From positions 28,708,001-28,772,000 of the forward strand of contig OZ076409.1 of NCBI GenBank assembly GCA_964187785.1: a stretch of 64,000 nucleotides of DNA, in the 5' to 3' direction. Source of the stretch: Amphiscolops sp. MND2022 (taxonomy: Eukaryota). Shown piece after piece: positions 21,503 through 48,259 of the stretch. The position numbers and the translations under genes were made by a program. The notes under the pieces were generated by a model. That model made no database searches, was not told the origin of the DNA, and saw only the letters and a program-made list of their open reading frames with translations. How positions within the stretch are numbered: position 1 is the stretch's first letter; each line of letters opens with the position of its first letter.

Positions 21503-22796
21503 CACTCTAATGTTCTCTGAACTGTCTTCAAAGGTTCCTATAAAACTCCAAAAACCCAAGTTCTTTATGTCCAGCTGACTCGGCGTTCAAATTTATTGCA
21601 AAACATCCAAAACAAGCAGTAACTTTGCTGACAAGCAATAACAAGCAGAATTAGGTTAAGATTGTGGAATGCCAGTTTGCTGAATTCTACAAACTGCTCT
21701 TATGTGGTCCATCAAAAAATTGCTTTCTACAAATTAAATGTCAAATTTTACAAATCGGAAATCATTTAATGTCCATTTACAGGTGAAATCGTGTTCGTTC
21801 TTGCAAACTAGTGACATATACTCCTCTGACATTGAACCAGGGATTGAATACAGGTTCAGCAGTTTCAGTTACAATTTATGATGAGCTGGCTACAAGACAA
21901 TTTGCCTAATGCCATAATGCCTATTCTCAATATTGGGACATTTGGCGTGAAATAATCTTTCGCCATCTCGGCTCGCGGTAGGTCGTTGTTCCTATTCGAC
22001 CTCGCTTAGCGGGATAGGAACATAAGCGGCCCCAAGAGCGCACTAGAGTAATAAGGGACATATTCGAGGCACGTTTTATACTTCATATCAGGTTATTGAA
22101 ACGTACTACAAAATGGTTCCTTCAAAATTGGAATCTTGAAATTAGTCGTAAAAACTATGCCATGGTCCATTTGGTAGGAAAAAATTCTACAAACTGGGCC
22201 TAACGTTTATAATTTTTCTACAGACTGGATTTTTCAATTAGGCATTTAACAATTTGCTTCCCTTCCATTTTCCTGTGGCAATTTCTATCGCGCTTAAAAG
22301 TAAGTTTCTGACTGACGCCGAAATACGCGGCGAGTGTTTGGAATTCACGCCCTAAAAGCAACGGTTTGTTCAAACACCCTTAATTTTGCAAACTATACAT
22401 TCAGCTATAACTTTAAAGCACTTTCTTCATTATAAGTGGTTTGAAAAATATAAAAAATGGTGAATGAAATGAATCGTGAAATGGTTCTTTTCGTTGTTTT
22501 AGCGTAACTAGAGAGCGAAGTTAAGAAAACAATGTCAGAGATATTGCAGTAGAAGTAGTAGCATTGTGGTGTTAGTTTTCGCAGGATCAGAGGGGGCATC
22601 AACCCTGGAAGATCCTTCCATGACCCTTTGATTTCGACAGTCATTTATCGCTTGCGTTTATATAGGTATATCTGTTGCTCTCCGTAATTCGCATAGAATG
22701 TTTGCCAGAATTCATTCACAATGTGTTCTTCAAGCCTTACTCTGTAAGAAGATTGATTTTGATTTTGCCAATTACACAACAATTTTGAAAAAAGTC

Positions 22797-24611
22797 TGTC
22801 ACAGGCTGCCGCCTGTGAAGGTACGACAGTAACCACATCAGCCGAAGGTCAGGAATTTGTACCCGTTACCCTCCCAATCTATTAAACTTAAACTGATAGC
22901 AAATTTTCGAACCTTTTGTGTTAAGTTTCCGTGTTGCACAATTTTGTACTTGATGATGCTACTTTTTTAAATTTTACTTTAAAAAATTAGTCTGTTAAGG
23001 CTAACAATCAAAAAGATCCAAGCTGAATGTTTTAATATGTAACGAAGTACCGTTATATGCTCAAAGTAATCAGAGTTAGAATGTAAGCAAATGTACGATG
23101 TATAGGAAACGAGTTCAAGTGAACGAAAGTCTCATTCTGGGGACGTCACATGAGCTCGTTATATCAGCCAATCAAATCGCATCATTTGAAATACTAGTAT
23201 AGCTTTCATTTGTTAATAGCTGCATAAGGCCAGTTGACTTAGTATAGTTGCTTTTGCTTAGCACTTTGATCAAATGGCCGGTACCGGCTATTTTGTGAAA
23301 AGTAATGTTGGTATACCAATTATATTTGTAATTAACCAGTTGGTATACCAATTATATTTGTAATTAACCAATATTACTATGACTGTGCTTCTTGTGCTAT
23401 ATATTCACCAATGCGCAGAATCAGTTACCAAATAAGTTAAATCCAAAATTGAGTGACAGCTTAGCCATTCACTTTTCTTCCTCTGTTGCTAGTTCAAAAT
23501 TTGAACAATTTCGGCCGTAATATGAAAATGCCTTTGTTCCTGTCCTATTATGATAAATTGTATTGTACTGAAATGTTTCACGAACAATGCATGTAATATC
23601 GTGTTCTCACCCCGTAGTAAAATTCAGCAGTATTTGCGTGGTGGCACGTGCCAATGTTGCCTACTGATGTTGAATGCACTAAAATCCAATGATGGCAAGT
23701 AGTGTTTGTTGACACTTTGATGCTTATATTTTCACTGGAAACTTGTTTGAAGTTGCAGCTTAGCTTAAATACCTCTTAGAATGTTGCTTGTTGAACTTCT
23801 CGAAGTATGTAAAATATAGGGGAAACACCATATATGTCATGTGTCAAATGATCTTAATCATAACTAGAGAATGTAAAGAAAGTGAGTGTCATCCCCTCAG
23901 GAGTATATATACAGATAACTTGCCTGAGTGGGAAATTCATAAAATTTGCTTGTTCTAGTGAAGATACTTTCCAAAACGGTTACACTGTTAATTTTCTGGG
24001 TTAGATAATTCATTATTCAATTCGGATTCTTCTCAATGCCTACTACTAGAAAACAAAAGAAGGCTAGAAAGTCAAGAGGAATTGATATGTTATCAGACAT
24101 TGAAAACCTTGATGTGATGCTTGGAGAAAATCACTCTAGTGATAAAAAAGAGAGGAAAGCTCAAACAGCATTTTAGCCAGAAGGCCAGAAAGCACCATTA
24201 GCAATAATTTTGAAAATGCTAATGAGGATATGTATTTAAACCGTGATTTAGGGATGAACACCGAGTATGGTCAGAATTCCACAAGTGAAAATTCTAGCGC
24301 TGAGATAAATAGACTGTCTAGTGAATTGAACTCGAGGTTATCAAGGAAATTAGATGAGATGATGGGTAATGTCAACACCCAGATCCAGAGAGCCATCAGT
24401 GATGCAATATGCAATCAGATATTGCCTCAGATTCAAACTGCTCTAAATACCGGATCGAGCCACTCGACACAAAATAGGTGGAACGTTCCGTCTGATAGAC
24501 CGGAAACTAATTCCGAAGAGACCTATGGTGAGAAAGTCAAGAAAAAAATTAGATGTGAGTCACGCATTGATTATCAGAATGATGTTCAGCCGCATCCGCG
24601 TGCTTACGACA
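22797..24611 (+). repeat. E3 5' LTR (~1.8 kb)
   Basis: 23484-24611 is repeated at 36889-38023. Start inferred from the TSD plus TG terminus. Confidence 0.85.
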
Positions 24612-25589
24612 TGGTGACAGGAGAAAACGAATCTCCAATTGAGGTTCCTGAGTTTCTCATGGGAGGAATGCCATCAAGAAGTAATATCCTCAGATCTCAT
24701 GATGACCTCAATCCCTTACTTGACACGACGTTCCCAGCGCAAGATAGGACCGTACCAGCCCCACAACAAGATCCCATCAATAGGCTAGCTGAGGTCTTGA
24801 CCAGTATGCAGAATTGCCCGACAGCCCAACAACTCACAATTCGCCCGGTCAACTCCAACACTATGACCTTTGACGGCAAAAGTGAGAAGTTTGAGCTGTT
24901 TGAAGATCTCTTCCACACAATGATCAAAATGCAGCCTGAAGTGTCCGAACAGATGAAAATTAACCATTTTCGTTCGCTGCTGAGAAATTCGCTGCATTCA
25001 GGAATATCAGCACTGTCAATAGACAACCTCTTGAGGATGTATTAGTCATTTTCAGACGTAAATACGTCAAACCTGAGTCGCAAGCGACTGCCAAACACAA
25101 ATGGCACCGCTTGGTCTTTGACCCCAATACAATGAAATTACCAGACTTCCTTGAAGAACTGAACCGAGGCGCAAAAAAGGCCTTTGGAGACCATGCTCAA
25201 AAAATGATTGACAGTCTCTTGTACGCAAAACTGCCACCGGAATTGAAGCGGTCAGTCAATATGGCCAGACTCGAAAACGGCTCTTATGATGAAAAAGTTG
25301 CTCATCTTGAGAAAGAACTAGAGCTTCATGCTCTTGAGGAATCTGACGACTTACCTATAGCGACATAATGTCCTAGATTTCCAAATCCAAAAAGAGAAAG
25401 ATGCCCAAAAAGACAAAACTAATCAGACGAAAACATATCCCGAATGCAGGACTTGTGGCAAGACTAACCATCTAACTAACAGCAAGACTAACTAATAACG
25501 ATCCCGACTCAAAAGCCTCGAAACCCCACCATAACCCGACATCGTCCAACTCCCAGTCTTCATCCAAGAACGACGAATAAAAAAACTAG
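24036..25589 (+). pseudogene. gag: E3 gag (starts inside the LTR; frameshifted)
   Basis: MPTTRKQKKARK...; FDGKSEKFELFEDLFH capsid-like text homologous to E4 gag (FRGQKDKFVEFEHLL); CRTCGKTNH knuckle remnant; ends at AAAAAAC-TAG. Confidence 0.85.
24612..24623 (+). promoter_or_regulatory. E3 primer-binding site
   Basis: TGGTGACAGGAG immediately after the LTR terminal CA; identical to the E4 PBS. Confidence 0.85.
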
Positions 25590-28500
25590 CTTCACCACGA
25601 CTCCAATACGACCAACGGGTCTCTGTCCGACAATACATCTGCTCGGACCCTCCAACGCAAACTTTCCATAACCACAAACAACAATTGTTGGGCTATCCTT
25701 CTGTTGTCTGGCAGCAGCAGATAGAAAAAGCTACCACTACTACTTAAAATATCACCCATTTGTTGCAAAAACCAATTCTTGTCTGGGACCCTGATTACAC
25801 AACAACCTTCACTACCCGATTCAAACCCATTCCCTTAATTGATGATTACAATCCAACAAATATCGATCCAAACTATAGCAGAGATCCCTTTTGGGACACT
25901 GAGCTCTCTAACCAAGACCTATTACAATCCCAATATGACCTAGATGACATTGAGCACTATATTACAACAGTCTACGAAAACCCTCCAATAACCCATAACA
26001 AAAAAAAACAAGAGCACTGATCGAAAACTGGCAGATGAATGACGGTACCAACCATCCAATGTTCCCAAACACCTTGAGAACCGAGAATGCCGAAAACAAA
26101 GAGGAAACGACTCCACAATCATTACTCGATGAGAAACAATTCCAAAACGTCCTCATTACAAAGAAGGTGCACCAGCCTGTATACCGTTGTCAACCAATAT
26201 AAACCTCAAATGCAAGAAGCGTATAATAAATTTCCCAATGGACTTTGGGGAATTCACCATAGACGGCCTAATAGATACTGGGGCATTATCCAAAGCAATT
26301 CCTGAAATGGACCTCCAGAAAATTCGACTCTTTTCGCCACAATCCTTTATCCGAGAAGGTCCGCCTCCGAACTTTCAAATCATGGTCGCCAATGAGCAAT
26401 TTGAAACTCCTAAAAGTATCCTAGAAATTATAGAAAAGAAACCATAGAAATCCAAATGGACAATGGTGATTTCGAGTTCCATGAAATCTTCATAGTAATG
26501 AAGAATTTGACGGGACCAATCATTGGACTAATGTTCCTCCAAAGAAACCAAACAGTTCTGAACATGAGGCAAGGAGGTTTGACTTTTCGTTCTTTTCGAT
26601 GCAGCTCAAAACAGCTGATCACAGATACTCCAATGTCTTGGAGCTAATCCTCAGTTTGACTGATATTTACCATTCCACCAAATCACAGTCCTAATCAGGA
26701 CAAATTCCCTACCCACCCTGAGAACACTGTCACTGGCATACTGCAACTATGTGACCTGCTACACGAAAGAGGCGACATTACTTTTTGTCCAGCTTTGGTC
26801 ACTCTAAAAGATGGCATTATATCGATTCCTGTGAACAATTTCACAGGTCACCCCTCCAAACTCAAGAAACGACTCCATATTGCCATTTTCTCTGTCATGA
26901 CGCCAGAACAAATGAAGTACGTCAAACCGGTTGACCCGGATTCGACCTGGCATCTCTTACAAAATGACCAAGAGCAGGCAGCCCATTATGTCATCAGTCT
27001 CATCAAGACCAATGAAAATCCACAGAATACAGAGATTTATTGGTTCCCAACTCCGGGAACCCAGGTAAACCGGAGGAGCACACGCCAATATAGAAACGAA
27101 TACCACGGGAAATACAAGCCCTACAGGACCTGGAGACTCTAGACCCGACTAAAGATGAGGAATCTAGAGCAAAATTCCTAGAAAATTTTGTTAGGAAGGA
27201 TTCCACTTTAACTACGAAAGAAAGAGCAAAAATTGGAGAACTAGTAGTGGAATTCCATGAAAGTTTCGCGAGACACAGATTTGATATAGGCATGAATGAG
27301 CAATTCAAGGTGAAACTGACACCTAAAGACGATTCCCCAGCATCACTCTTAGTCAGAGCCTCCCAGTACCCGTAAACCTAAAGGAGGACATCCTAGTTGA
27401 ACTAGCAATGCTACATAAACATGGTATAACCACCACTCTGCCATTTTCGAAATACTCCAGCCCGATATTTGCGCAAAAGACGCCAAATCGGAAACTGCGA
27501 CTCCTGGTTGACCTGAGAAAAATCAACAACCTAATTTCGGATGATTTCGTAAACAATAGGCATCCTGTCAGAACCCTAGTTGATGCCGCACGGTACATGG
27601 CAGGAAAAAGCTCTTTTGTAAGTTAGACTGTTCATAAGCGTATCACTGCCTTCAGATGGCCAACCAACGGTCAATTGAAATGTTAGCCTTCAATTTTGCA
27701 TGTCGCACATTTGCCTACCGACATTTGGCACAGGACCTTAGTCGAGCGCAATCTGCATTCTCCAGTTTCATGCGAGAATGCCTTGATAAAGTTATCAAAG
27801 CGGACCAGTGTGCACAGTATGTGGACGATATCGGCATCGCAGCCAACGACGCTGATCACCTCATAGCTAACCTGAGAGCAGGAAGTCAGGAAGCAGGCCT
27901 TAAATTGACAATGCACAAATGCCATTTTGGTGCTACAGAAATTGATTTCCTTGGACGAACGATTACCCCACAAGGCGTCAAACCCCAAAGGCAGATTGTC
28001 CAAAACTTTCATGAAAAAACCAAATTCCCGAAGTCGAAAAAGTCTTTATAACGGTATTCGGGATTCTTATACTATAACAGAAACTACGTCCCAAAACTTT
28101 CCGAACGCCTTGCTCCATTCTACAAGATGCTGAAAGGTGACAAAAAGGTCCTTGTATCGAAAGACTTGGTGCAGCAATTTGAGGAAATCAACCGAGCATT
28201 AGACAAATGCTGAGACTTGGCCTTACAACAACCGATTCCGAACAAACAAATCGCCTTGATGACAGATGCAAGATTTGGCGCTGCCGGATATGCAGTGCTA
28301 ATAGAAGATGACCCAAACCAGAAATTCACATCAATCCGCAAATCTTATGCACCGGTCGCATATGGTTCAAAGACCTTCACCCCCGCCCAGATAAACATGT
28401 CCATATTTGCAAACAAATTTCTTGCGATTTACGTCGCATTCAAGGAATTTGGGCATATCTTCTGGGGCACGCCAAAACCGGTCATTATCCTAACTTACAA

Positions 28501-30810
28501 TAAAGCCTTGACCAGATTTTTCCAAACAAAAACTGTACCCCCAGCCCTGCGGAAAGCATGTGACTATGTCATTCAATTCAATTTCGTCATAGTGCACATC
28601 CCAGGGGAACAGAATACGGCAACGGATTATTTGACCCGCCTGGAAGCTGATCCGAAGGACGAAATTAGTATTGAAAAGTAGAGAGGATGTACAAACTGTT
28701 CCAATTGAAATAAATGTCCAATCAGCCGGAGTCTCACAGGAAGAACAAATCTTCTACACGAATGACGATGATGAGACGGAAGAACAATTTTGGGCGAGGA
28801 AAGAAGCAATCAGGAAAAATCCCCCCATAGAAGAACCTGCTGTAACAATCCAAACATTTTCTACAAATTTGGTCAAACAACAACCTGACATCCATGTCCA
28901 ACTACCGAAAACGAACCAGGTAATTATTGAGCAACCCAAACATGCAGTAATACAGCAATTGAAGGCGAAACTCCTTCATGAAGATTACTCAGAAAACGTA
29001 CTGCAACAGGATGCTCGATTCCGACACAATGCAAGCAACTTAGAACGAATTGTATTCAAGGATGAGATCCTGACCAGGCAATACTTTGACGAAACAGGAA
29101 ATGTCAAATACCATCAAATTCTACTCCCGCAGCACCTACTCCAGGAACTGCTTCAGTCCCTTCACGGGACTGCTCACAAGCACCCTGGCATATCCAAGAT
29201 GTTACAGCAAATCAGACAGAAGTATTACTCCACTAACGTGGCAAAGTACGTTAAAAAGTGGGTAGAAGTGTGCGCACAATGCGCAAAGGACAAGCGCGTC
29301 CCCAATGCAGCGATCACGCCTGAACTACTTAACTTGCCGGAATGGGACTTTGGACCCGAAGATGCCATGCAGATTGACTTATTGCCGAATCTTCCCCCAA
29401 TTGGAGGATATGAAAATGTTCTCACTGCAATTGATGTCTTCTCTCAAAATCTGTTCGCTTACCCTCTTACGGACGCATCAGGAATCAATGTGGCAAAAGT
29501 GCTCATTGATATAATGACAAAACATGCGTATTTACCAACAACGCTTATTACCGACAAAGGAACTGCATTCCTTTTCACGATTATTGCCGAGACTACGCAG
29601 ATTTTGGGAAACACACTCAAATGCGTAACGACAAAACATCCGCAAAGAGTCGGGAATTTGGAGCGAACACATTCTTCACTCAAGACGAACATAAAATTGG
29701 CATGAGGGGAATATCGCCGTTAATGGTATAAATATTTGCCATTAGCAGTTCTCAATCACAAAACGAGCTATCACGCGAGCATTGGTTGTGAACCAACGAG
29801 AGTATTCTATGGACGAGTTCCATACAATATCTTGGATCACACCCTCGATATAATCCAATCGAGCAGATCACTCCTACAACTGAATTCTCGGAAGAAATCC
29901 AGAACCAGACCAAACTCTTGATTGACAAAACGAAGCAGAACATCAGGCAATCCTTATTAAATACAAGGAATATTTTGATCGCAAAGCAAAAGCGGCACCA
30001 CTCAACGAAAACGATTACTGTTTTAAACTACAGCCGAAAGCGGATCATCAAGGATCAAAGATCCCATTCTGAATTTACCGTTGGGTTGGGCCATTTGTAG
30101 TCCAGAAAGTTTTATCTAATGAGAAATACAACGTCCGCAGGCTCAATACAAATAAAACTCAGATATTACATCGAATTCGCCCTAAGAAGTTTGTTCCCAA
30201 TCAACCGCCTCAGGACAATTTTCGAGACGAGCGCTTGCAGCCAGACGAGGAATTTGTCATTCCCCAAAACGACTTATATACAATAACGTGGGAGACAAAC
30301 TTTGATGACCAACTAGCTAAACGAGACAACGAGCCTATTCCGACTAGCTTGCCGAATAGCGAACAGCCAGTTACGGCAGAAGCGAATTCGAATGACGCAC
30401 ACGAAAATGCAGCGAATTGTATCATCACGACTGATAGTCCGAATGACGTCAACGATGCAGCGCAAAGTCAAAATGAAAGAATAAAAAGTGACATCAGCAG
30501 CAGAAATGAAGCTAGCGAAGCTGATAAAAATGAAAACTCTGATTGGCCGTATTCTGCTGTTTACCACAAAAATCAAGAAAAATCTTTGCCAGATCTGTCC
30601 GAAAGACAGGAAAACAATGCAAATTTTTCAGAAAGAAATTTTGCAAACGAAAACGATGCACGAGAAGCTCCAAAAAGGGGGGATGAAATTATCGTGCCCG
30701 AAAAATCGCAAAATGATGACAGAAATGAGAATCTGAGTCCTAGAGGTGGGTGATATAATCTCAGACCTAACCCTAACCCAAACTACTCAGAAGACTTCAG
30801 ATACTATAAA
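25590..30810 (+). pseudogene. pol: E3 pol (PR-RT-RH-INT), heavily frameshifted
   Basis: LIDTGA; SKYSSPIFAQK..LRLLVDLRKIN; YVDDIG; MTDARFG; HGTAHKHPG..CAQC; IDVFS; TDKG; WVGPF; YNLRPNPNPNYSEDF tail. Confidence 0.93.
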
Positions 30811-31059
30811 AGACTAAATTCTACCTAGAAAAGGGCTCTGGATTTGCTTTTCTTTTTAGTTCTTTTTATCTAGTCCCCTGATGAAGGAATCTTTTGAATA
30901 AATATGGGGACATTGAACACACTCCCTTTCGAAATAAATATAGGGATCGGGAGATTAACAACAGAAGGACAACAAACCGGGATCACAAATACCGGAAAAT
31001 GCAAGGAAGTCAACAAAGTTTACAGTTTGGAAGTACAAGCATACATATGTACAATTAGT

Positions 31060-34000
31060 CTTTAGAGGAACCAGGTCGAGTAGTTTCAATGACGGACGAA
31101 GAGGATGATCGGGAAGCGCCTCGTTCCATTTTTCTCCGCTTAGAACTGGAAGGGGTTTTCACGGCAGATTAATCAACTACATAACTTACATCTCCAGATG
31201 CAGCTCGAGCTGGGGCCTTCTGAGGGGTAGAAAGTGCAAGCCGATAAGAAACCAACAACGACTTGTAAATTCTGGAGCATTCAAAAGTGTCCACGTAAGT
31301 CCAGGGATCGTAATCGGGAGCAAATGCAGATCGCCCAAAGGAAGAAGCTAGGTTGACGAACTTAGCAAGATTGTCGTCATCACTGCATAAAACTACTGAG
31401 TCTCGCACGTTGACCATGTAACTTTGGCTTGGAAGAATCACGTCAGTTAGTCTACTCTGGCGTCCGGCAGTGGAAACTGTCCCGAAAGTGACATAGGGTT
31501 AAGTTGAGCTGGTAGTAGTAGCACACAAACAACACAGTTTGAAGAGATAAATAAAACAACTACGGTCTTGAAGAAACTCCAGCCCAGACAAAAACTCAAT
31601 TAAATCACTGGAGACACTAGTTATATCAAAACTGCGGCCATACGCAGTACGAAGGTGATCAAGCAGTTGCATGTACTGATCCCGGCATAAGGACTCATTA
31701 GCACTGGGAACCCAAGAACGGAGAAAGAAGGTACTGTACAGTATGTCGAAAAGACGCAGAGCTATATCTATGGTGCGCTTGAATAGGATGAAAGGATCGG
31801 AGGTAGCTATCCCTTTCACTATATTTGTGCTGAGTCCAGTCTGGCGGAGAACTTCGTTGATAAGGTACTACACGTACTGTTGGCTGTCTTTGACAAATTT
31901 AGCTCTCACGGTTTCAGTGGTCGTCAGGATCGCTGAGCGCTCTGATTTCTTACCAAAGTGCATTCCCTCAGCTTTCGCCTTGCTTGCTGACGACACTTTG
32001 TTGGTGAGTTTCAGGCTACCAAATACTCTTCTCCGGCCAGGAAAGTGGCCTCACTCGTCTGAAACGTCGCAAGAACCAGGCGTTAGCTAGAGGAACCGTA
32101 TCAGGACTATAGATGCGGAAACAGAGCAGGCTTACGAATTGGCAAACTTCGCCACAAAGACAAAGGGAAGCGTCACGCCTGTGTTGGAGATTTACAGGGA
32201 AACTAGCTGCGTCTGGAAAACAAATCAGTACCTAGGGTGGAGCAATGACCATGGACTGTTACCTTAACATGAGATACTTACAGTCACTCACAAGCCCGTT
32301 GAACTCCAATTTGACAACGAAAAACTCGTCGCAAATCAGGGACCATTCGAAGCTATGTACGTTAAACAGAACACACCTGTCAGCGCTACCCAGGTTTTAC
32401 CCAGAAAGTAAAGGTTCCAGGAAGCCCTTATTGGAATCATTTGATTATGTTACTAGGGAATACAGCATAAATTGTAACCCTGCCTCGGACTCCTTGACCT
32501 CGTTGTATGGGGGCATGCTCGGTCAGGTACCGAAGGATTGGTTTCCATTCCTTGACAAGCTCATAACAAAGACCAGAAAGTATCTGAACGTCAAGTTTAC
32601 AACTGGTCACGGCCTGTAAAAACCCGACGCTTGAAGTTTTGGCCTGAGCCTTACTACACCCCAAACCGCCTGACACATAACGCTTAGTGGAAGAAACAGA
32701 ATAAAGTACTTACTTCAGTGAGTGCTGGACTCCGCATTGCCCACTCCTCGGCGAGAGTCCACGGAGTAACTGGACTTGTGCATTAATGTAGACAATGACA
32801 GTTGTTCGAAGCGAAAACAGCTCTGGACTCGTTGGGGAAGTTTATTCTGACTGGTCGATTGTCTTGACTAAGTCGACGTGGCAACCAGAACAAGCCACTA
32901 CATCTGGTTGGGCAGATACTGCTGACAAGAAACGGGCCAGAGGCCCAAGTTCCCTTATGACATCAGTTGCGGGGAGGGAGCTTCGACAAATAAGGACTAT
33001 GCAGAGCTCAGAACTTTTCCAGAATTTGACAGTCATGTAGCGGTAGACACCAGCGGTCTCAAATTCAATTGCAAAGCATTGCTGGGACGCGACTTGCTCG
33101 GCGATGTCAATCAGGGCGCTTATGAAGAAAAGCTGGAATATGACCTGCAACGGAAACAGGACAACTGAGATATGGAATTATTCAAGCTTTTGGGTTGGTA
33201 AGCAAAAGAATACTTACGGTCATTCGCTCTTCTCCACAGTCTTAATCGCAAACTACTGTTGCTTGGTGATTGGTGTAGGCTCCTATCCTGGACCACAAGT
33301 TCCTGAGGACTGACAAGTCTCTAATCGTCTTTAAGAAGTCTCCTACAAAAAAGAGTTGAGTTTTGACCCGTGCCTCTTGGGTTACCAAGGCCGTGGTGGT
33401 TCCCTTGATGAAATCTTCGTAAATGGGGAACCTTTCCCCTATGTCCACCAGTTCGACGTTGATGAACTTAGGTAGTTGATTGGCCAACTCAATTTTTGTT
33501 AGTATCTCGCCATTGGCGCCTCGGACTCGGTGCTGTACCTTGCCGCTAACAGGATCTGTGCTGCGCAAATGTTCATATCGCCATCGACGTAAGTGGCGTT
33601 CTGTCCGGTGGTGCCTGAGGATCTCATATGGGGCTTTAGACTTTATAGAGAAATTCTTTTTGCAGATTTGGCACCTTATGCGGATTGTATGCAGACCATA
33701 TGCGGATTGTATATCGGGTCTGCAGGGCCGTAAAATGAATGATCTGGTCGAGCCAATTTTGGAGGAAAACTCTTATCTCGTGGGCACACTTTTCCTCGTG
33801 AGCCTCTTGTTGCCCTTCTTTTTCTTGGACTTTGAAGGCCCTTCTCCAGAGTTCCTCTGTGCTTGCTCTTGTATCTCAAGCAGAGTAGTGTCCTGACTAC
33901 TAAACTCTTCAGTTTCGAGACCTGTTTGTTGCGGGCTAGGCGTCGCCTTCTCTTGAGTCGCCCCTCCCAGAGGGAGTGTGGGTACGCTTGAAGGACTTTG

Positions 34001-35173
34001 ATATTAGATCCATTTCAGTCGCACTGTCACTTTCTTTGTAGAAAGTTGTTCCACCAGTGTCATCAGCGCCCGATTCGTGTTGCCCCATCTCCGCCTTGGG
34101 GTTTGTGACCCCCTAGTTTGAAAGTGAGCCGTTCGGGACGGGAGAGCTGTTGGGGATCCACGGACAGCATCATAAACCATCCTTTTCGTGGTGGTGAAAG
34201 ATCGCCGGAGGGTCTCATCTGTGAGGATGCGTAGGAGGTTGTATACCTGAGGTTCAGTTAAAGCAATAGTGGTATGTCCGACAGGGAGTCGGATCGGAGA
34301 AGCTTCCTCGAAATATTCCTTCAGGATGGCTCTACTGCGGCCTAAGAGGTCCGGGAGGTCGTCCTGTTCTGGCTGCTTTTTTGATGTTCGTCCTTTACTT
34401 GTTCCAGGAGTTTGTTTATCGCAACTGGTTTCATCCCCGCCTTCAGTTCCTGACTCAGTGGCAAAAGGGGGATACCCGTACAGTTCCACTGGGATGATGC
34501 GGCTCGCTTCCTCTGTAGACTCTTCTTCTTCATTTCGGCTCAATGTGAGTTGTACATTGGAAGCGCCTCCTGGTAGCGCAGGTACGTCACAAACTGACGA
34601 GACGTTGTCATCATCGGTTCTGGATGGGGTGTCGCTGACATTTATTTGGCCTGAATTGTCCTTATCCCTCAGTTCTGGCAATTGGGATTCGGTGGACATG
34701 ATGACTCTTAAGACAGATTCCAAGGCTGATAAATCAGCTTCCTGACCCTGTTCCTCATCAGACTGGACGGGGGTGCTTGATCTACGATACCCAAGCGTGG
34801 ACGTTGCCAATTCTGGAGGGTCACTACCCAATTCTTGACTTTGGGTCGGGGCAGAAACTGGAGTGCCCTTGTCCTGCGTGGTAGGGACATGTGCCTTCTC
34901 CATCCTTTGGACTACTGATTCGGCGTAAGCAGTAACATCAGCGTCACCGTCCTGAGTGAGTGCAGGGCTATCGAGCTTGACTAATTCTTGAGGTCGGGAA
35001 ATTTGAGTACCCGCTTCGTCTCGTTGAAACCCCACTGATGTTGTGGCTGAGCTCTTAGGAGCGACTGGATTGCTGGCTTGGGTTGTGGTTGGTGAATCAT
35101 GATTCTCCTTCAGTGAACTCTCTAAACGAAAGGGAATAAAATTTGGCGGTGTGCTTCCTTGAAAGAAATCCAT
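31060..35173 (-). pseudogene. E3 antisense cargo gene: zinc-finger, hAT-transposase-like protein (disrupted; at least one intron, 33145-33217)
   Basis: Consecutive minus-strand ORFs 34004-35173, 33242-33673, 32842-33144, 31499-31819 and 31169-31441. CQICKKNFSIKSKAPYEILRHHRTERH finger at ~33590-33673. GTAAGT...TTGCAG phase-0 intron. Confidence 0.7.
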
Positions 35174-36252
35174 TTACCTTCCAAAGAAAACCTTCCGAAA
35201 GTGTCTTACAAACTTGAACAAAACGTGTTTTCATGTGTCCACTAATGGAAACAGGAAGCATCTAATGAGCGAATTTAACCCTGATCAAGCTAAATTAGTT
35301 GAAAAAGAAAAAAATTAAAACCAACCTGGGACAGACGCCATGCTGTTGACAACTGATTGAGTGACGATCCCAAATGGGACGTTTGGTGTTGGGAAATCGG
35401 TAGAGTTCAATTGCAAGAAGGGGAAGCTCCAAGAATATCCAAAGGAATAGTCAGCGACGAAGTTGAAGACGAATATGGACAAGTGTAATAATCGGGAGTA
35501 CAAATCAAAGAAGAATACAAATTGTAATCGGAATTAGAATAAAGTAACAATTGGAAAGATTGAAAGTTGGAGTTCGTGGCTGAAGAAATTACCAGACTAG
35601 TATTAGATGGTTATCTACATGTTTAAAACTGTACATGGAGTCTGCCAGCGAAATGTACAGAGGATCTTCATTACTTACAACATTGTTAGTTAGTAGCCAA
35701 TTATGGCCGTTTACCCTATGTTGGTTTACCGTTTTGTTCAATTATCCCTTTTAGCCTAGTCAGAATTCCCCCATTTTGAATTTTTTGGATTTGTTATTTT
35801 CGCCATTTTTTTATTTCATTTTTCATTTCATCCAAGAACGATTCCAATTGGCTGAAGCCATTTTGAAGAGAACCTACGACGTGTGCCGTTAATTACTTTT
35901 AAGCAGCCCGTAAGCTACCCACTTGAGACGAATGTATTTGATATCATTAACTTAAGCGTCGTTTACACCCCTTCTGATGATGAGAGTGATGGGGGGTAAA
36001 CACCAGGATTTTAAAAGCCACCGACCGTCGGCGGAATTCAATTCAAAGAAAGTTTATGCCGCGTTAGGACAATTAACTGAAATTCCAAGCGCTGAGTCGG
36101 AAACCCCGGGAATAGGCTTTACTCGGCCTTAGGTGGAAAGATAGTGACTTCATTCCTCCCAAAAGCTTAACAAGAAACAGTTGCCTCAAAGTTATCAGGA
36201 TAGCTTAGAACTTAATAACGGAGAAATTTAACCTCGCAAGAAGACTCTTTGA

Positions 36253-36890
36253 CATGGACAATGATAGTTCAGAAGCCTCGGACAAGTCAGTCATATAAAT
36301 CTCGAGCAGCGAGGATGAACTCTCAGATGGCTGGGCATCAGACAACTCCACTGATACAGAGGAATTAGTAGCCCGCATTGAAAAGGGAGTCTGTGCAAGT
36401 CCCATGTTAATCGGCGGAAGAGCATGACAGTGGAAGCAGAACAAGAGAATATGGCACCTGGACCTTGTACAAGCAAAATATGCAAGGAAGTCACCCCGGC
36501 GAGCAAGTTGCGACACAAGTACTTCGACCAGGAAATGTGTTAGGTCCCTCCTAGGAAAGAAGGGAAACCAAGAATTGAAATCTGCAAGACGCTTTTGCCA
36601 GTTCTCGATTCGTCCAGGTCTCCGCCGCAATATGAGAAAGGACCTTCGATGGATACTCCGCTGGTTCAGTCAACAGACTCAGGTTTTCATGCAACCTATC
36701 ATGTGCAGAACACGAGGCCCTACCAGAACATCAGCGAAGTACGCTACACTGGCTGTGTGGTCTGTGGTCGCTCGGTAGACGCAATCAAGAAAGAAAAGGT
36801 GGAATGGTAAATGCAAAGGTCCACCCCGCAAAGCGAGCCTGAACAAGTGACAAGACTCAGAAGGGAGGCATGCATTTGAGAATGGTCTTG
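36253..36890 (+). pseudogene. E3 small sense-strand accessory ORF (acidic N-terminus, CVVCGRS motif), truncated at the LTR junction
   Basis: MDNDSSEASDKS..SSSEDELSDGW...HATYHVQNTRPY...YTGCVVCGRSVDAIKKEKVEW, with stops and frameshifts. Confidence 0.5.
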
Positions 36891-38023
36891 TTGCTAGTTC
36901 AAAGTTACGGATTTGGCCAATTTCGGCCGTATTATGAAAATGCTTTTGTTCCTGTCCTATTATTATAAATTGTATTGTACTGAAATGTTTCACGAGCCAT
37001 GCATGTCATATCGTGTTCTCACCCCGTAGTAAAATTCAGCAGTATTCGCGTGGTGGCACGTGCCAATGTTGCCTACTGATGTTGAATGCACTAAATTCCA
37101 ATGATGGCAAGTTGTATTTGTTGACACTTTGATGCTAATATTTTCACTGGCAATTTGTTTGAAGTTGCGGTTTGGATTAAATACCTCTTAGAATGTTGCT
37201 TGTTGAACTTCTCGAAATATTCTAAAATATCGGGAAACACCATATAAGTCATGTATCATATGATCTTAAACTTAACTAGAGAATGTAAAGATTGTGAGTG
37301 TCATCCCCTCAGGAGTATATATACAGATATCTTGCCTGAGTGGGAAATTCATAAAATTTGCTTGTTCTAGTGAAGATACTTTCCAAAACGGTTACACTGT
37401 TAATTTTCTGGGTTAGATAATTCATTATTCAATTCGGATTCTTCTCAATGCCTACTACTAGAAAACAAAAGAAGGCTAGAAAGTCAAGAGGAATTGAAAT
37501 GTTATCAGACATTGAAAACCTTGATGTGATGCTTGGAGAAAATCACTCTAGTGATAAAAAAGAGAGGAAAGCTCAAACAGCATTTTAGCCAGAAGGCCAG
37601 AAAGCACCATTAGCAATAATTTTGTAAATGCTAATGAGCATATGTATTTAAACCGTGATTTAGGGATGAACACCGAGTATGGTCAGAATTCCACAAGTGG
37701 AAATTCTAGCGCTGAGATAAATAGACTGTCTAGTGAATTGAACTCGAGGTTATCAAGGGAATTAGATGAGATGATGGGTAATGTCAACACCCGGATCCAG
37801 AGAGCCATCAGTGATGCAATAAGCAATCAGATATTGCCTCAGATTCAAACTGCTCTAAATACCGGATCGGGCCACTTGACACAAAATAGGTGGAACGTTC
37901 CGTCTTAGAGACCGGAAACTAATTCCGAAGAGACCTATGGTGAGAAAGTCAAGAAAAAAATTAGATGTGAGCCACGCATTGATTATCAGAATGATGATCA
38001 GCCGCATCCGCGTGCTTACGACA
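36889..38023 (+). repeat. E3 3' LTR (5'-truncated)
   Basis: Matches 23484-24611. Lacks the first ~690 bp of the LTR and a PPT. Confidence 0.88.
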
Positions 38024-39723: not shown

Positions 39724-40142
39724 AACTATAACAGTATCAAACATTATTCGGAAGATTCAACAGTGAGAGTGGAAGATAGAATTGCAACAGTATCCGACTA
39801 TTATCAGTGCAATCTTGTCTGTTTTTTTCCTATTCATTTTCAAGTCCTTGTAAATAGTAATTACTTCCGCTTCCTCTATGTAAAGATTACGTAGAACGTT
39901 TCTTTCATGGGTTTGATACTTTAGCATTTTCAACTTTACAACACTACATAGTTCTGTTCTGAATAGGCATCATTTGGTGGAAACATACTGGGTTTGCTGT
40001 AGACGAAAGTTTTTGTTGAGTTCTGCTCACTTTTGCTACATAGCGTTAGCACTCAAACATAATGGTATACAGCACAGAGCAAAAAGCCGTACTTCCGTCG
40101 TCATAACCTCTACTATTCACGTCAGTCGTCCGGTTCCGGCGA

Positions 40143-42386
40143 TGTCGAACCCATGCTGTTGGGTCGGCTTTGAAGGACCTTTTGAGCTAGACGGCTGAGA
40201 TTCGTTATTATTCTTGCTTACAATCGCCATCATTAAGTCCTTCAGTTGACTAAACTCCTGGTGTAACTCATTAATTCGGCGTTCATAAATTTCCTTTGTT
40301 TCAGATAACTGAGAAGAGATATCCGAATTGTCGTTGGTGTCAGAATCATTTGAGTTTGCCTGAGCCATGTCTGGATCTGCTGGAGAAGATGTTTCTGACG
40401 AAGAATTTATAACCCTACCACTTCTAAGTTCGGTACCTTGGTCTGGGTTCATGTAGCTGAGAGAAAAGAAATATGAGTGAAGACTGGATTATCTGAGATG
40501 CTGTTCTAAGTATTTTACTGATTTAAGTATTTATTCGATCTCAAATTCACTAATCTGAACTGAGATGTTTTAGAGATGAAGTCGTACAAGTAAGTCGTTA
40601 GGTGAGAACAAGGAAATTAGTAAGGTAGCTAGGAAAGTTCATCCAGTTTTCATCGCAATCATAAATGCACCAAGGAAATTACTCAGTTTCAGTTCTATAG
40701 TTTCTGAAGATGAAATAGAGATATATTTTCAAGTAGAATTCTGGCGTGAACTATTCAACTGGTTGGTAACTTGTCGCAATTCGGTCTGAATAATCGCTAA
40801 TGGCGGTCCAAATTACAGCAGTTCACGTGTCTTTTCGGTTGGTAAGACGCTAAATCTCTTACCAACCTTCTCTCATTGGCTGTTACCAGCTGGTGTTAAA
40901 ATGGTAAGTCACGTGACCGGTGTTGTGAACTGCCGCAAAGTGGCCACGCATCATGGTACATCTACATATGTTAATGGTGTTTAGTCATCAATTTACAATG
41001 TCGCAATTGCCTGCACGCAGCATCATGGTTTCTATAGCAACTAAAATGAGCTCAAATCATTCAATAACGCACTAATTTCAAGTCAATTTAAGATAAAGCG
41101 CAATTCGGGATGGGAAAACGATGTTTTCCGCTGATTCTAGCACCAAAACCAATGATTTAAAAATTGAAGATGGAAATGCGATGAACTTGTAAGAATATTT
41201 GTTGATTTTCAAGTCTAGTTTAGCTCTGGATGAAAATGCGATGAATGGTGGTCTTTCTCGCTCGAAAATCAACACAATTTAAACTGACGATGATAAAAGG
41301 ATGAACTCCACGTATAATTTGCCAATTTCCAGCACAGATTAAAATGACGATGAATTCGGGATGAATTCAGTCGATAAACGCTAATTCTAGCACAAGTGAA
41401 TTTTTGGCGATGGGTTTAAGATGAGCTTGTCAGTTGAAACAGCAAATACCAAAGCAATACAAATTGGCGATGAGTTTAGGATGAACTCACCAGTTAAAAC
41501 ACCGAATACTAAAGCAATTCAATTTAGCGATGAGTTTAGGATGAACTCATCCACTAAAATGGTTAATTCTCAGCACAAACGAAATCAAGATGAATTAAGG
41601 ATGGGTTTACTAAACAAAATCAGATAACCAGCACATTCACTCTTTTTTAGGATGGATTAAGGATGTACTTTCTCATTTTCCTTCTATGCTAGTGAATACG
41701 ATGAATAAAGGATGGGTTACTGTCCTTTAAGGAATGAGAAGCACATTGAAATTTCTTTACATGAAATACAACGATGAATTTAAGATGAAATTACTAAAAT
41801 AAGGTCCCATAAAATCCGCTGATGGATTAGTGATGAAAAGTCAGTTTAACGTCCCAATCGTTGTTCATATGCAATTCTGGAGATGAAATTGCGATGAACT
41901 TCATTCAAAATAGCTCCAAATTAAATCCGCTGATGGATCTAATGAATTTATCAATCAATTCGGGTTCATCGTTAAGTCCGCTGATGGACTAGCGATGAAC
42001 TTGGTGAAAGTGTTGTCACGACTACAAGTCCTGAGGCGGGGAGCTAGTAGAAGTTACAGCTTTCATCGTTTATACATCTCTCGGTCCAGTTTGACCGGAA
42101 CACTTCTCTCCCTTGTCGTGACAAACCAATATTTATGGATTATAGCACATTCGAGACTATTTTGGCAAGATCATTTATGCGGACACCGGAACTAGAGCGC
42201 TCAGTATTAAGTAAATATATATAACTCAAACTCATGGGGAAATGGGGACTAAGTATAAGTAACGTAGGGTTGCACCAACCATGGTCCTTATTATATGACA
42301 TCATATTGCCCATATCTAAGTACATAAGACATAATATTTACATTACAGATATTTAGTAGATTATATTTCCATCATGCTGGCATGAC
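40143..42386 (-). repeat. E4 3' LTR (~2.24 kb)
   Basis: About 25 differences from the 5' LTR by manual comparison (~99% identity). Confidence 0.93.
41109..41998 (+). repeat. Degenerate 60-bp-period array of GATG-N7-GATG in the E4 3' LTR
   Basis: Motif starts at 41109, 41169, 41229, 41289, 41349, 41409, 41469, 41529, 41589, 41651, 41700, 41773, 41821, 41882 and 41983. Confidence 0.9.
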
Positions 42387-43529: not shown

Positions 43530-46500
43530 ATGTCCGACATCCATATTGATTATTCTCTTCCAGAGACTGAAGCTACAGAAAGTAAGTGCACTATTTTCTT
43601 TTCTTTCACAAACGGGTCAGGGTACAATTAGGTGCTGAAGACGCGTCTTGGTTTTTTAGCGGACTCAGTTCAATCTGTCGGCGTCGTCTCTGAGCTGACT
43701 ACCTTGCAGACCGTGCCGCCTCAAGAGGCTCCTGAAGCTCAAGCAGCAGCTCCTGAACCTCAGTTTCAACCTGATCAACCGCTTGGTCAGGCTCCCAACG
43801 TCCCGTACCTTCCGCAGTGTAAGTTCTGTCCTTCCAGATCTTCAATTCAGTCTACGATCTCTTCATTTCTCATCTCTGGTTCCTTCAGATGTTGACTCTT
43901 TCCGTTTTGATGTTTAGATCACTATCCTTGGAATGTCTCCCTCGGTAGCATCACCTTCGGGTGGTATGATCGCCACATGCGGGACATGCTACGAGATAGC
44001 ATCCAGCAGTATAGTGAGTTGACTCCTTTTCACTTTTCCGTCTGTACTAAGGCATCGTCCGGACACTCCGATGTAATTCCGATGTAAAAATCTCATCTGC
44101 ATGTAGTGCCCTTCGCGGTCGATTACCTATAAAATTCATTTTTTAAGATGAATTTGGGATGTGTCATGGACCTTCACAGTCCTTCGTGACTGATTCACTG
44201 CAAATTCCATTCTTGAAGATGATTTTTAGATGAATTCTTCTCCGGTCTTCTTTCTTCGCGCGGCGTACGCGCTCTTTCTTCTCCAATCGTCGTCATCTGA
44301 TTACTGTTTCTTCTTTCAAGCCCGACTCCCATCCATGCGCCAAGACCTCGTCCTATTTCCTACTCAGTGGGTATAGGGACGAGTGATTTTGGTGCATCCC
44401 AGATTGATGCCGGCACACAAGTGGCGCCTCCTCCGTTGGAGATGTCTTCTTTTCTCCAGGACCTCTGTTTGGATGCAGTTAGCTCTCCAGTGGAACGTGC
44501 CCCAGTGTCGGTGCTTTCGCCGAACCTCTAGCGATTCCTGGACCGCGAGTCAGCAATTCGAAGTCCTCCTCCTCCTCCTCGCGTCACTGTAGACGCAGGA
44601 GTCAGTGCCGTCGTCACTCCTGTGGATGTGGCAGTCGATGTCTGCGTGGCTGTTGTTGACCAGTCCATTCAGGCCGTTGTGGAAACTGGCGAGACTTCCA
44701 CGGATTACGATCCTCCTGTGGAAACTCTTTCGGCTGCTCCCTCTTCGCCAGCTACTAGCGTCCCTGAAACTGTGGAGGCTGACGTTGAGCAGTCTGACGT
44801 GCCATCAACTGACAGCACTGATACCCTTCTTGAGGCAGTCGAGGATGTCCCTGCTGGTGATCCTCTGTCCGCTGAGCCTGCTCCAGAAGGTGCTGTTCCC
44901 GGTCTGGTTCCTGTGTCTGCTGAGACGTCTCCCATGGGACCCAGTCTCGTGGACTCCGACGACGAGCCCATTGCGCCTCGCTTGCCAGGTTACCTAAACA
45001 GCTTTAACCCTGTGAAGTATCTGATCGGTAACTTTTATTCATTTCTTTTTTCATTTCCACTTTCACCAGTGTTTTTTTCTCGTCATTCTTCTTTTCCATC
45101 TTTTTTTCCATCGTTTTTCTGTTTTTTCTATATGATTTTCTGCAGTTTTTCATTTTCCATCACTTTCTCATCGTCAAAAGTCTTGAGTATAGCGTTTTTT
45201 CTTTTCTGATCATTTTTTTTAGAACTTTCCATCTCTTTCACATCCTTAAATTTTCTCATTCGGCTTTTAGCTATTTTCGTCGTTTTTCTTTTCAGTTTAC
45301 ATCTCTTTTTCATCGTCAAGTTATTTTCGCTCTAAAATATCTCAAAGCTCAGGTTCAAAGTCGTTCTATACATCTCTTTTTCATCGTTCGAGGCTTTTTC
45401 GTCTTTTAAAGTTTCAATTTTCTGTTCTGGTGGCTTGCAAACACATCTCTTTTTCATCTTTTCATTTTTTCTTCGGTTTTCGTTTGTATTTCCGATGAAA
45501 ATATTATTTTACATCATTTTTTTATCACTCCGGGGAGCTTTCAGAAGTTTTCATTGGAATATCGAGTTTTCGTTTTCTGAGGATGTGTAGAAGACGAGTT
45601 TTACAATTTCGTTTCACTTGTGATTTCCAGGGAGGAAGATTCTAAAGGTAACGTGGTTTAACCACGCCTATTGTGGATTGGCGCTCGGATTTGCAAAGGA
45701 CCATCTGACGCGGGACTCGTACGTGAGGTGTCTGCTTTGTAAGCAGGATGTAAAGATAGCCGGTCGTGGGATCACAACGTTCTACGAGCATTGTCGGCGG
45801 GTCAGGCATCACCGACTGGACAGCTTGATACGTTTACGAAGGGGCTTACCATTACGTAGACGAGATGGGACTCTGATGTCGGAGGCGGATTCCACAGCGT
45901 TCGCTTTAACAATAGCTGGCGAGAGTATTCCACAGGTCGAAGTCTGTCCTGACACGACTGTATTAGAGGCGCTACAGATCGAGGCGGAAGGCGGTTCTGT
46001 GTGGCGCGATGGATCTGAAGTTTCAGAGGATCGACAAGTCGAGAGTGTGCGTCTCTTCCTGTGTTTGGTTGTCGATGCGATGTACCGCGATTGTGACTTT
46101 TCCAGCGTGCGGTACCTCTGGGATTTGATCGTCGCGTCAAATCGTCAACATTCGTCGCTGTTCGGCGCAGGTTGTCAGGATTCGGACGTTCTGGTAATTC
46201 TTTTAGGATTATATGTATTATATGTTTTGCATGTTACATGTAGGTGTGATCGTAAGATGCTTTAAGTGTGAACTTGTGGAACCGGTTATTATAATGTGAC
46301 GTGGAGAAATTATTATGTAGATGACACGGTGTTTTGATCCAGAGATACTAGTGTATTACGTGAACGTGTATCGTATTTAGTTTTTTGTGTTTAGAGTGTG
46401 GTGTTGTTGGGGCTATGGCCGTATGTGATGCGGCGAGTGATGGGGCTGTGGTCCGAGACGGAGTACCATAGCTTCAGCATCACTAATGTAGCAGGCAAAG

Positions 46501-48259
46501 TGGTCGGTACTTTGACGGTCTGCACTTTGGAAGGGCCAGTCAGCTATATCCTGTTCTCTCTGGCATATGGACAAGCGTGGGATCAGGAAGTCGTTGCATG
46601 GATGACTAATCTGCTGTGTTGTCGGGTGGGGCGAATGGTGCCTGTGGGCATCAATTGTGGCCTATTGCCAAGGGTGGAGGCTGCTTTGTGTCCTTCTTCT
46701 GGGCCTCAGGCTGTTGTTCTGGTACCACTCAAGCTCAGTGACTTGAATCAGTGCCAGGTGGACGTTAGTGTGAGGGTGATGGGAGGGACTGATCTTCATT
46801 CAATCCTAAACCATCTTCATGCTAGGTTGAAAGAGTTCGTTCGTTATCCGATTCTGTTGGCTTGCCCGAAATTATTGGAGGTAATTGTACAGTTTAGTTC
46901 GTTTAATGTGTATCTCCCTGAGATCAGGCGTGTTGAGTAATTTTGTATCTGGGTCGAAGTTGAGAGTAGTGATTTGCTAATAATTATATGTATTCTTGGT
47001 GTTTTAGTCTGTTCTTGCTGTTGAGGTGACACTCTGGGAAGTCCTCACAGAGCTATATACCAATTGGGCAGAGATCTCCTGTCTCTTACGCGTTGCCAGT
47101 AGTTCGGGCGTCATTGATTGCTTGGATTTCGTTCTCTGTGGTGACCCAAGTGTGTCACTCCGTTTGCATGCACTGGCAATCGTTTTTCGTGCGAGTATGT
47201 ACTAATAGTTTTGTAGACTAGGATTTATCGGGTGTGGGTTTTGGTTGATTTTACAGTTGTACATTATAGCGGTCGGTTTGGGTGTAAATGTTATGTACAT
47301 ATTATTATTATTTGTGTTTTGTTTTAGTGGTTACATCTTATCGCTGGAGTTTTTGCAGCAATGGGCTGAGAGGCTGTCACTGGGCCTACGAGAGTTCCTG
47401 TTTCGTCCGTTCAATCCTGTTGCGGTTGTTTGACGATGAAGACCTGCCGGCTGAGACTAATGTACGAGCCTGTCTGGGTTTGGATGTCGACAGTCTTGTG
47501 GTCTCTGAAGCGAAGCAAGCCGCTCTACGTGAGGAGTTTCTGGTGCACCTTTGTGACTTTGAGGGGCCAAATGCTTTTGACGAGCATGTTGCCATGGTCA
47601 GAAGTTTCTTGCTGGTGCTGGTGGAAGCGATCTTGAACTGTCACGGGATGAAAGAGGCCGTGACATTCCATCTGAGCTTGTGTTTTCCGGCTGTGTTGCT
47701 ATCTGGTGAAACTGCTGTACTTACAAATGAGGTTGAACTATTTACCGGCTTGCTGATGGATCTTCGGAAGACCAAACTCTCCGAAAAGCGACGTCTGGAT
47801 GGTAGTTTCAGAACATTTTTAGCAAACTACCGGCGTGATGCAACTGATGTCGCTATTGACAGCTGTAGTTCGGCTGTAGATATTCTTCGTGCATGTGACA
47901 CTGTGCATTCGCAACGTTTGTTTCGCTTCCTCATGTGTCTGAGTGGGAGTCCTCTCTTCCCTGCTAGTCTGAGCTGTGTGAGTGTGGGGCTATTGCGCAG
48001 CAGTGTTACCAGCAGTGTATGTGCTAGTATTTTGAGCTTCTTGAAAGCCCATTGCATTCGTCATTCGGATAGCGTTAGTGGTCCCCTGTTGGAGGAAATC
48101 GGCGACGCAATGAGTCGGTTCACTGTCTTATCGGAGATGACAGAGGATATGGTATGGGACGATGTCGGAGTCGTAGCAGATGAAGCGTATCGCCAAGACT
48201 TGTACCGCCTTATGGGCTTTACTGCAGAGGGAGAATGGGCCCCTAGTCCGGAAATTTAG
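43530..48259 (+). CDS. E4 antisense cargo gene, ~8 coding exons, ~1050 aa, zinc-finger/hAT-transposase-like protein
   Basis: Predicted exons 43530-43581, 43660-43818, 43918-44013, ~44230/44321-~44990 (uncertain, contains a stop), 45631-46193, 46395-46880, 47008-47194 and 47328-48259. GT..AG sites are phase-compatible at all junctions checked outside exon 4. CLLC-x16-H-x5-H finger. Confidence 0.8.
45097..45530 (-). repeat. CATC-N7-CATC array (~71-bp period) in the cargo-gene intron
   Basis: Motif starts at 45158, 45230, 45300, 45371 and 45444. Confidence 0.8.

Follow-up and report, generated by a model that had tools for sequence, protein, structure and literature searches.

Two retrotransposons lying within 64 kb of an Amphiscolops genome each carry an additional gene on the strand opposite to gag-pol, and the question raised by this locus is whether the two genes are the same component of an old retrotransposon clade and, if so, what that component might be. 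The stretch analysed (the window) spans positions 28708001-28772000, 64 kb of a 1.07-Gb assembly. Its two elements, E3 and E4, are Ty3/gypsy elements by the order of their pol domains (protease-RT-RNase H-integrase), and each has two LTRs and a primer-binding site (Table 1). Target-site duplications of 5 bp are present at E4 and at two further copies, E4b and L068; none was found at the matched LTR edges of E3. As an earlier note on this DNA had claimed, the antisense reading frames, here termed the cargo, occupy one and the same location in E3 and E4, between the end of pol and the 3' LTR. No terminal inverted repeats bracket either cargo in a search restricted to repeats of at least 60 nt.

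Table 1. Features of E3, E4 and their cargo genes in the window (positions are those of the window).
Feature	Positions	Strand	Remarks
E3 5' LTR, matched part	23484..24611	+	95.4% identical to 3' copy; left edge uncertain
E3 gag-pol	24146..30804	+	several broken frames; RNase H and integrase by Pfam; 64-86% to pol of copy L068
E3 primer-binding site	24612..24623	+	identical 12 bases in E4-type and type C elements
E3 last exon	31058..32212	-	mostly helical, basic C-terminal tail; several breaks in window copy
Shared intron 3	32213..32281	-	phase 1; equivalent to E4 47195-47327
E3 exons C + D	32282..32613	-	split by an intron found on the E3 side only, 32355-32478; carry invariant Trp
Shared intron 2	32614..32713	-	phase 0; equivalent to E4 46881-47007
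E3 exon B	32714..33144	-	486 nt in intact relatives; here shortened and frameshifted
Shared intron 1	33145..33217	-	phase 0; equivalent to E4 46194-46394
E3 cargo exon A	33218..35173	-	conserved start motif, long Ser/Glu/Thr/Pro-rich region, finger, then helices; internal stops
E3 C2H2 finger	33593..33673	-	U1/matrin-like in model
Sense-strand ORF remnant	36242..36870	+	head-to-head with E3 cargo; 52-60% to a 257-aa ORF of copy L068
E3 3' LTR, matched part	36889..38023	+	
E4 3' LTR	40142..42386	-	98.7% to 5' LTR (57070-59319); 5-bp target-site duplication
E4 upstream low-complexity exon	44301..44988	+	left edge approximate; one in-frame stop
E4-side intron	44989..45630	+	phase 1; donor present in 27/30 loci
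E4 finger exon	45631..46193	+	563 nt, same length in type C
E4 486-nt exon	46395..46880	+	flanked by the two shared phase-0 introns
E4 exon with invariant Trp	47008..47194	+	ends at shared phase-1 intron
E4 last exon	47328..48259	+	
E4 gag-pol	50793..57416	-	CCHC knuckles, protease, RT, RNase H and integrase; frameshifted

The cargo contains a C2H2 finger with the spacing C-x2-C-x16-H-x5-H in both elements, in agreement with the identical spacing reported earlier; its four ligand columns hold Cys in 47 sequences (with two substitutions), Cys in 50/50, His in 50/50 and His in 48/50. The motifs that had been quoted as colinear blocks after the finger are found in both cargos, and the phase-0 intron placed at the equivalent site is a 73-nt GT..AG intron in E3. 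The introns shared by E3 and E4 number three, not one, two more than the earlier note described, and their phases (0, 0, 1) are common to the E3-type and E4-type families and to a third family, type C. GT..AG boundaries are present in 100 of the 102 shared introns from 34 elements, and in DNA alignments the exons are conserved, varying at third positions, while the GT..AG introns between them have diverged. Exon lengths past the finger are 486, 135 and 76 nt in E3-type copies, followed by the last exon; E4-type copies have exons of 563, 486 and 196 nt and then the last exon, and type C has 563, 489 and 211 nt, the single 211-nt exon corresponding to exons C and D of the relatives of E3 (135+76 nt). 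E4 and type C also share, with the 563-nt exon, a phase-1 acceptor upstream of it. Exon lengths give an estimate of about 1,300 aa for the E3-type cargo, finger included, with exon B modelled as a long helix and a three-strand sheet that form a putative RNase H-like core. The E3 cargo of the window is itself decayed, with several stops and frameshifts and the loss of one canonical acceptor, a state that the earlier note did not mention. P0237 and P0158, two database proteins that are bridge sequences, read across intron 1 and may be intron-less genomic copies.

Comparison of E3 with E4 as single sequences gave a marginal BLASTP match (E 0.005 and 23% identity in 152 aa, from an all-against-all search that was noisy), and profiles built from close copies alone reached E 6.6e-5 with the match confined to the finger exon. 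With diverged relatives added, the E3-side profile aligned to that of E4 plus type C at E 1.9e-16 over 416 columns, with all three intron junctions in register. By part, the match has an E value of 1.5e-11 in the finger exon, 4.3e-5 in the 486-nt exon and 2.3e-4 in the next exon, and is weak in the last exons (E 0.0096). The similarity beyond the finger is significant in this profile comparison, which the earlier note had suggested as a check: the whole post-finger part gave E 2.9e-8 and a score of 70, against at most 24 in 20 column-shuffled controls and 16 with the reversed control. On profile evidence, the two cargos are homologous beyond the finger.

At least 150 matches were obtained for each of the E3-type, E4-type and type C cargos, the last family having been located by searching with a diverged database protein; every one of the 150 candidates scored per family was a match, drawn from 6013, 2481 and 3894 first-look candidates, respectively. 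Copies were located through the cargo itself, and the ten E3-type and ten E4-type stretches that were fetched had been picked for their spread of cargo identity, which inflates cargo diversity. A pol lies downstream on the opposite strand in nine of the ten E3-type stretches (the exception being a tandem cargo repeat), in 10/10 E4-type and 16/16 type C stretches and in one divergent E3-side copy. Four lineages of this genome carry the cargo at the identical place, and all three families have the identical 12-base primer-binding site. Within 264 kb of contiguous sequence, 4/4 cargo matches adjoin a gypsy pol, and no free-standing copy was found there or in 37 targeted stretches. A decayed pol that groups as sister to the E3 side has had its 3' region replaced by another insertion. 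A search of 1.84 billion representative proteins gave 310 at E 0.001 or better; all but one of the 147 newly listed proteins match loci fetched here, mostly at 30-70%. Searches of the genome with six of the database proteins gave best identities of 28% and 48% for two and no match at strict cut-offs for the other four; these six probably come from other genomes.

Purifying selection acts on the reading frame of the cargo itself. The exons have a median dN/dS of 0.02-0.06 in the E3 type and of 0.09-0.12 in the E4 type, as computed from the 4-13 unsaturated pairs available for each exon; in most pairs the silent sites were saturated. All frames on the opposite strand over the cargo contain stops. 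At least 600 aa are open through the finger in 24 of 29 E3-type loci, and the spliced frame is open to its end in 5/10 E3-type, 8/10 E4-type and 8/14 aligned type C copies.

Trees were built for pol (1084 columns, 42 rows) and for the cargo (664 columns, 38 rows). Both give the same groups (the lineage L098 with E3, E4, and C) and the same split, (L098,E3)|(E4,C), a deep congruence that rests on four lineages and on an outgroup, E1, of about 24% identity. The rank correlation between pol and cargo identity is 0.85 over 703 pairs. Between families, pol identity is 44% for E3-E4, 46% for E3-C and 64% for E4-C; that of the cargo is 16-18%, and the deep part of the cargo tree is close to a star. 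Every clade of pol has a single counterpart among the cargo clades; a one-off capture was correctly denied by the earlier note, and the agreement between families supports a single old acquisition.

The same check of tree congruence, which had also been proposed, revealed sharp conflict within families. Pairs of elements with 95-99% pol DNA identity drop to 55-70% across the cargo, with sharp edges. In AU tests on groups picked after the trees were seen, the groupings of either tree were rejected when applied to the data of the other (p 1.3e-6, 0.0025 and 0.00015). In two complete E4-type elements, gag-pol is mostly 95-99% identical, the LTRs and flanks are 77-93% identical and the finger-to-end core alone falls to 60-66%. 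Mean identity among 12 E4-type elements is 95.5% for pol, 82% for the LTR and 66% for the cargo core; LTR and pol covary (rho 0.71, Mantel p 0.001), while the cargo follows neither the LTR (rho 0.09, p 0.27) nor pol (rho 0.02, p 0.38), and these elements retain at least five cargo lineages that are about 60% identical. Because the LTR tracks pol while the cargo tracks neither, the finger-to-end core is a cassette that has been swapped between backbones in which LTR and pol remain associated, and the cargo alleles are older than backbone and LTRs. In each of the three families divergence is greater in the cargo than in pol, and pol is a mosaic along its own length. The earlier note would take incongruence within families as a sign of independent insertions, but the identity of position and introns points to recombination. 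The description of the cargo as an ancient, vertically inherited component of the clade therefore stands as regards age, selection and presence throughout the clade (four lineages, one site, shared introns, purifying selection), but strict vertical inheritance is not supported, as the core is exchanged within families. Given that cargo and LTR do not covary, the protein probably does not read its own LTR sequence.

As to the nature of the protein, we consider it probable that the cargo is a cut-and-paste transposase of the DDE type, belonging to the hAT/MULE group and with a nested DNA transposon as its most likely source. The enzyme would have lost its catalytic acids, while finger, RNase H-like scaffold and helical C-terminal part would have been retained. 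This assignment draws on language-model look-alikes, strand order and weak fold matches. In the Atlas, the finger exon has hAT-type N-termini as its neighbours (0.90-0.92) and exon B has MULE/RNase H-like domains (0.89-0.90); 4-10% of shuffled proteins also score near 0.9, and the Atlas treats such matches as leads. An N-terminal zinc finger, which the cargo possesses, is a feature of hAT transposases, and the finger alone matches hAT in profile tests (E 2e-4 to 4e-3). P0242, the one non-cargo protein noted among the 150 matches listed, was matched with E 1.2e-11 over five stretches and reads like a hAT transposase, without Pfam support. The structure model runs from the finger through helices and a long helix to three strands, with pLDDT below 50 over much of exon B. 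A Foldseek search with this model placed the Hermes transposase at ranks 3, 8 and 9 along with many integrase cores, all of them weak (E about 0.04 or worse); no match to the cargo models reached significance in the fold searches.

No acid is conserved where the putative first and fourth strands end, sites that as read from the model would be the first and second catalytic positions, and the CxxH motif of hAT transposases is absent from the cargo. Pfam gave nothing significant on the cargo. A profile comparison with 74 DUF4371-type hAT proteins did not rise above controls (best P 0.12) and one with the hAT C-termini of this genome gave no match; likewise, the hAT dimerisation domain PF05699 had no Pfam match in 18/18 last exons and no profile match, the model of the last exon being of low confidence. 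The hAT ORFs of this genome that span the whole enzyme, found at five of 16 loci, are 597-697 aa long in one frame.

Taken as a whole, these results are best explained, with a probability of roughly one half, by an old and selected antisense gene for a disarmed transposase that is swapped as a cassette and acts as a non-catalytic binder against silencing. Introns in antisense orientation are not lost in retrotransposition, since the RNA that is packaged comes from the other strand and is left unspliced at these sites; the gene thus needs an antisense transcript of its own. Transcription from an antisense promoter that would lie between start codon and 3' LTR, for which there is a candidate motif, would give rise to a spliced message, and this in turn to a protein composed of a long disordered N-terminus, the finger and the dead transposase scaffold. 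The likeliest single mechanism, which we put forward tentatively, is that the product is a nuclear, non-catalytic binder of nucleic acid or chromatin that helps the element against host silencing. The combination of strong constraint, free exchange and very old alleles would best suit a factor that meets host defence and whose rare versions are favoured, and such host pressure could keep many old alleles in circulation. A bolder and more doubtful extension is that a transposase gene was domesticated, introns included, as an antisense accessory and became a multi-allelic cassette with rare-allele advantage in a counter-silencing or self/non-self system; if true, a class II enzyme would have been turned into a variable weapon of a class I element.

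The main alternative leaves the origin unchanged and treats the old alleles as a by-product: a fitter pol-LTR backbone would have swept through older subfamilies by template switching, taking up whichever resident cargo was co-packaged, with the alleles interchangeable in a housekeeping role such as nuclear import, integration tethering or transcription. In line with this account, purifying selection is strong and positive selection has left no sign; the mosaic pol, the independence of the cargo from LTR and pol (expected of equivalent alleles) and the regulatory or import role proposed for plant antisense ORFs in the available text of a review (PMC7264820) agree with it as well. We find it less likely, however, since the cargo core is more diverged, with sharp edges, than the LTRs and both non-coding flanks, since the cargo exceeds pol in divergence in every one of the three families and since 12 elements retain no fewer than five cargo lineages of about 60% identity. 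We give similar weight to a captured host gene or an unknown family unrelated to transposases, whose likeness to them would go no further than a finger of a common type and a three-strand sheet of a generic kind. Every profile test of transposase likeness beyond the finger was negative, no fold match was significant and an intron-rich structure suits a host gene, but two Atlas queries from different exons point, as leads, to parts of a DDE transposase in the right order, and neither the 264 kb nor the 37 targeted stretches hold a free-standing copy.

Repressors usually take the form of a transposase that is catalytically dead but still able to bind, and many coexisting old alleles are typical of self/non-self systems. 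Both facts would suit an element-encoded self-limiter or immunity factor (a dominant-negative repressor, or one that excludes competing elements in an allele-specific manner) in place of a helper, and antisense transcription could also give double-stranded RNA (PMC7264820, available text). The high amplification of the families, with at least 150 matches each for E3-type, E4-type and type C, speaks against such a role, which we regard as improbable. Least probable of all are independent captures, in which related intron-bearing DNA transposons inserted antisense at one site in separate gypsy lineages and were each domesticated. The gap between cargo identity (16-18%) and pol identity (44-64%) across families, the near star shape of the cargo tree at depth and the pol sister to the E3 side whose cargo region was replaced by another insertion could be read in this way; yet site, orientation, three introns, acid loss and primer-binding site are all identical, the clades match (L098 with E3, E4 with C) and the intact whole-enzyme hAT ORFs of this genome are single-frame.

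The antisense gene for a disarmed transposase that we favour can be set beside several known systems. In its order of parts (N-terminal finger, helical region, long helix, three strands, a later invariant Trp and a helical C-terminus) the cargo is compatible with hAT transposases (Hermes; ZBED/FAM200/DUF4371 type) and MULE transposases; unlike these, it lacks conserved catalytic acids, CxxH and a significant match beyond the finger, and it sits inside an LTR element. VANC proteins recognize their own element's DNA in a sequence-specific manner. They are accessory factors that plant MuDR elements, which are DNA transposons, direct against host silencing, and are derived from MAIN-like proteins (PMC13547354, available text); their analogy to the cargo is a functional one only. 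Own-DNA recognition of the VANC kind predicts cargo-LTR co-variation, which is absent here.

In the plant Ty3/gypsy elements Retand, Grande (gene23) and RIRE2, the available texts place antisense ORFs between pol and the 3' LTR and propose a nucleic-acid-binding regulatory role for them (PMC7264820, PMC11963269). The cargo resembles these ORFs in position, orientation and presence in most copies, and it has the properties of an aORF-3R: the opposite strand, a place between pol and the 3' LTR and conservation at the coding level. In the part of the review available, the origin of the plant ORFs is given as mostly unknown and as without similarity to other transposons or viruses (PMC7264820), unlike the cargo, for which leads point to a DDE transposase. 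The cargo has four to five or more exons, whereas the available text of PMC11963269 makes no mention of introns, and cassette exchange is not described in the available texts of PMC7264820 and PMC11963269; the review asks for a search for spliced antisense transcripts (PMC7264820). Pfam gave no match in the cargo to PF04195, the Retand/TRP28 domain.

The gene brtn of Boty-like gypsy elements of Botrytis and Sclerotinia was reportedly described by Zhao et al. 2011 (PMID 21802103). According to the available texts (PMC8365987, PMC7264820) it is an extra antisense gene, with the antisense ORF of these fungal elements likewise placed between pol and the 3' LTR, and Boty-like elements resemble those studied here in having such a gene outside plants, a comparison by description and not by sequence. 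Extra coding modules have been gained repeatedly, and shared between lineages, by LTR retrotransposons of bdelloid rotifers (PMC5408684) and by planarian Burro (PMC6431247), which likewise are invertebrate gypsy-like elements; as far as these texts were available, their modules are env-like, GDSL, DEDDy or in-frame, unlike the cargo, and PMC5408684 mentions neither intron nor transposase, and antisense once, for small RNAs. An env-like ORF3 was rejected as an identity for the cargo, which is antisense to pol and has stops in the sense-strand frames over it.

In the literature searched, which included few subscription papers or Repbase reports, we came across no description of this protein, and none of an LTR element with a transposase-derived antisense gene or of cassettes exchanged in this way. 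Transposon annotation would overlook genes of this kind or label them as host genes. How the antisense extra genes of LTR retrotransposons arose and what they do is a standing question (PMC7264820, available text), for which this genome provides a high-copy, multi-family case with a datable exon-intron history and a candidate donor in a DNA transposase. The many old alleles on one backbone constitute a natural experiment in which origin, selection and function are testable by RNA, small-RNA and structural data. Antisense extra genes were already known from plant and fungal gypsy elements; what this genome adds, relative to the literature searched, is the protein, its probable transposase origin and the exchange of the cassette.

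A palindromic CTTCCGGAAG, which we presume to be ETS-like, precedes the start codon of the antisense cargo gene in seven of the eight E3-type copies inspected (L061-L064, L066, L068 and L070), the eighth having given no start; it is a candidate antisense promoter. A start motif similar to the N-terminus of the E3-type protein is found again in the diverged database proteins P0145, P0193 and P0222. Two further diverged relatives of the cargo, P0237 and P0158, lack intron 1 and end at the intron 2 donor, and the finger region of P0237 combines E3-type and E4-type features; neither has a close match in the Amphiscolops sp. MND2022 assembly.

Head-to-head with the cargo of E3 lies a conserved sense-strand ORF that extends into the 3' LTR and measures 257 aa in an intact relative. 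Since its end is matched a second time at 22793-22882, the 5' LTR of E3 may once have reached further left. The gag-side frame of this element starts within the 5' LTR and is read on through the primer-binding site; it matches DUF1759 weakly, under the cut-off.

Features of the window and of related loci in the same assembly (G000)
Feature	Position	Strand	Remark
E1, distant gypsy element	1219-7850	+	
E3 gag-side open frame	24146-25045	+	
Palindromic CTTCCGGAAG	about 35190-35205	-	immediately upstream of E3-type cargo start codon
Conserved sense-strand ORF	36242-36870; also L105 (G000:C1:47930454-47938453)	+ in window	head-to-head with cargo
60-base tandem units	41284-41619 and 58216-58551		within E4 LTRs
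Two 2.17-kb tandem units	59549-63878		98.6% alike; immediately after E4
Decayed gypsy pol (L125, L154)	G000:C5:30092042-30096052		sister to E3 side

Elsewhere in the assembly, locus L065 (G000:C6:33864442-33874441) carries the cargo region in tandem (3.2 kb at 99.3%, with 4.8 kb spacing) in a stretch without pol, and in L098, a divergent E3-side copy, exon B is likewise duplicated, with the extra copy upstream. In the decayed L125/L154 element, the place of the would-be cargo region directly after pol is taken by a gag-like sequence on the opposite strand, presumably of Bel/Pao type judging by its motifs.

The pol of E1 is ∼24% identical to that of the cargo clade and is followed downstream by an 814-aa sense-strand frame with no Pfam match and no similarity to the cargo. 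At 54064-55896 (minus strand), the pol of E4 gave a weak dUTPase-like match (E 0.046) between protease and RT. The same placement of such a domain is described for rotifer and planarian elements (PMC5408684, PMC6431247).
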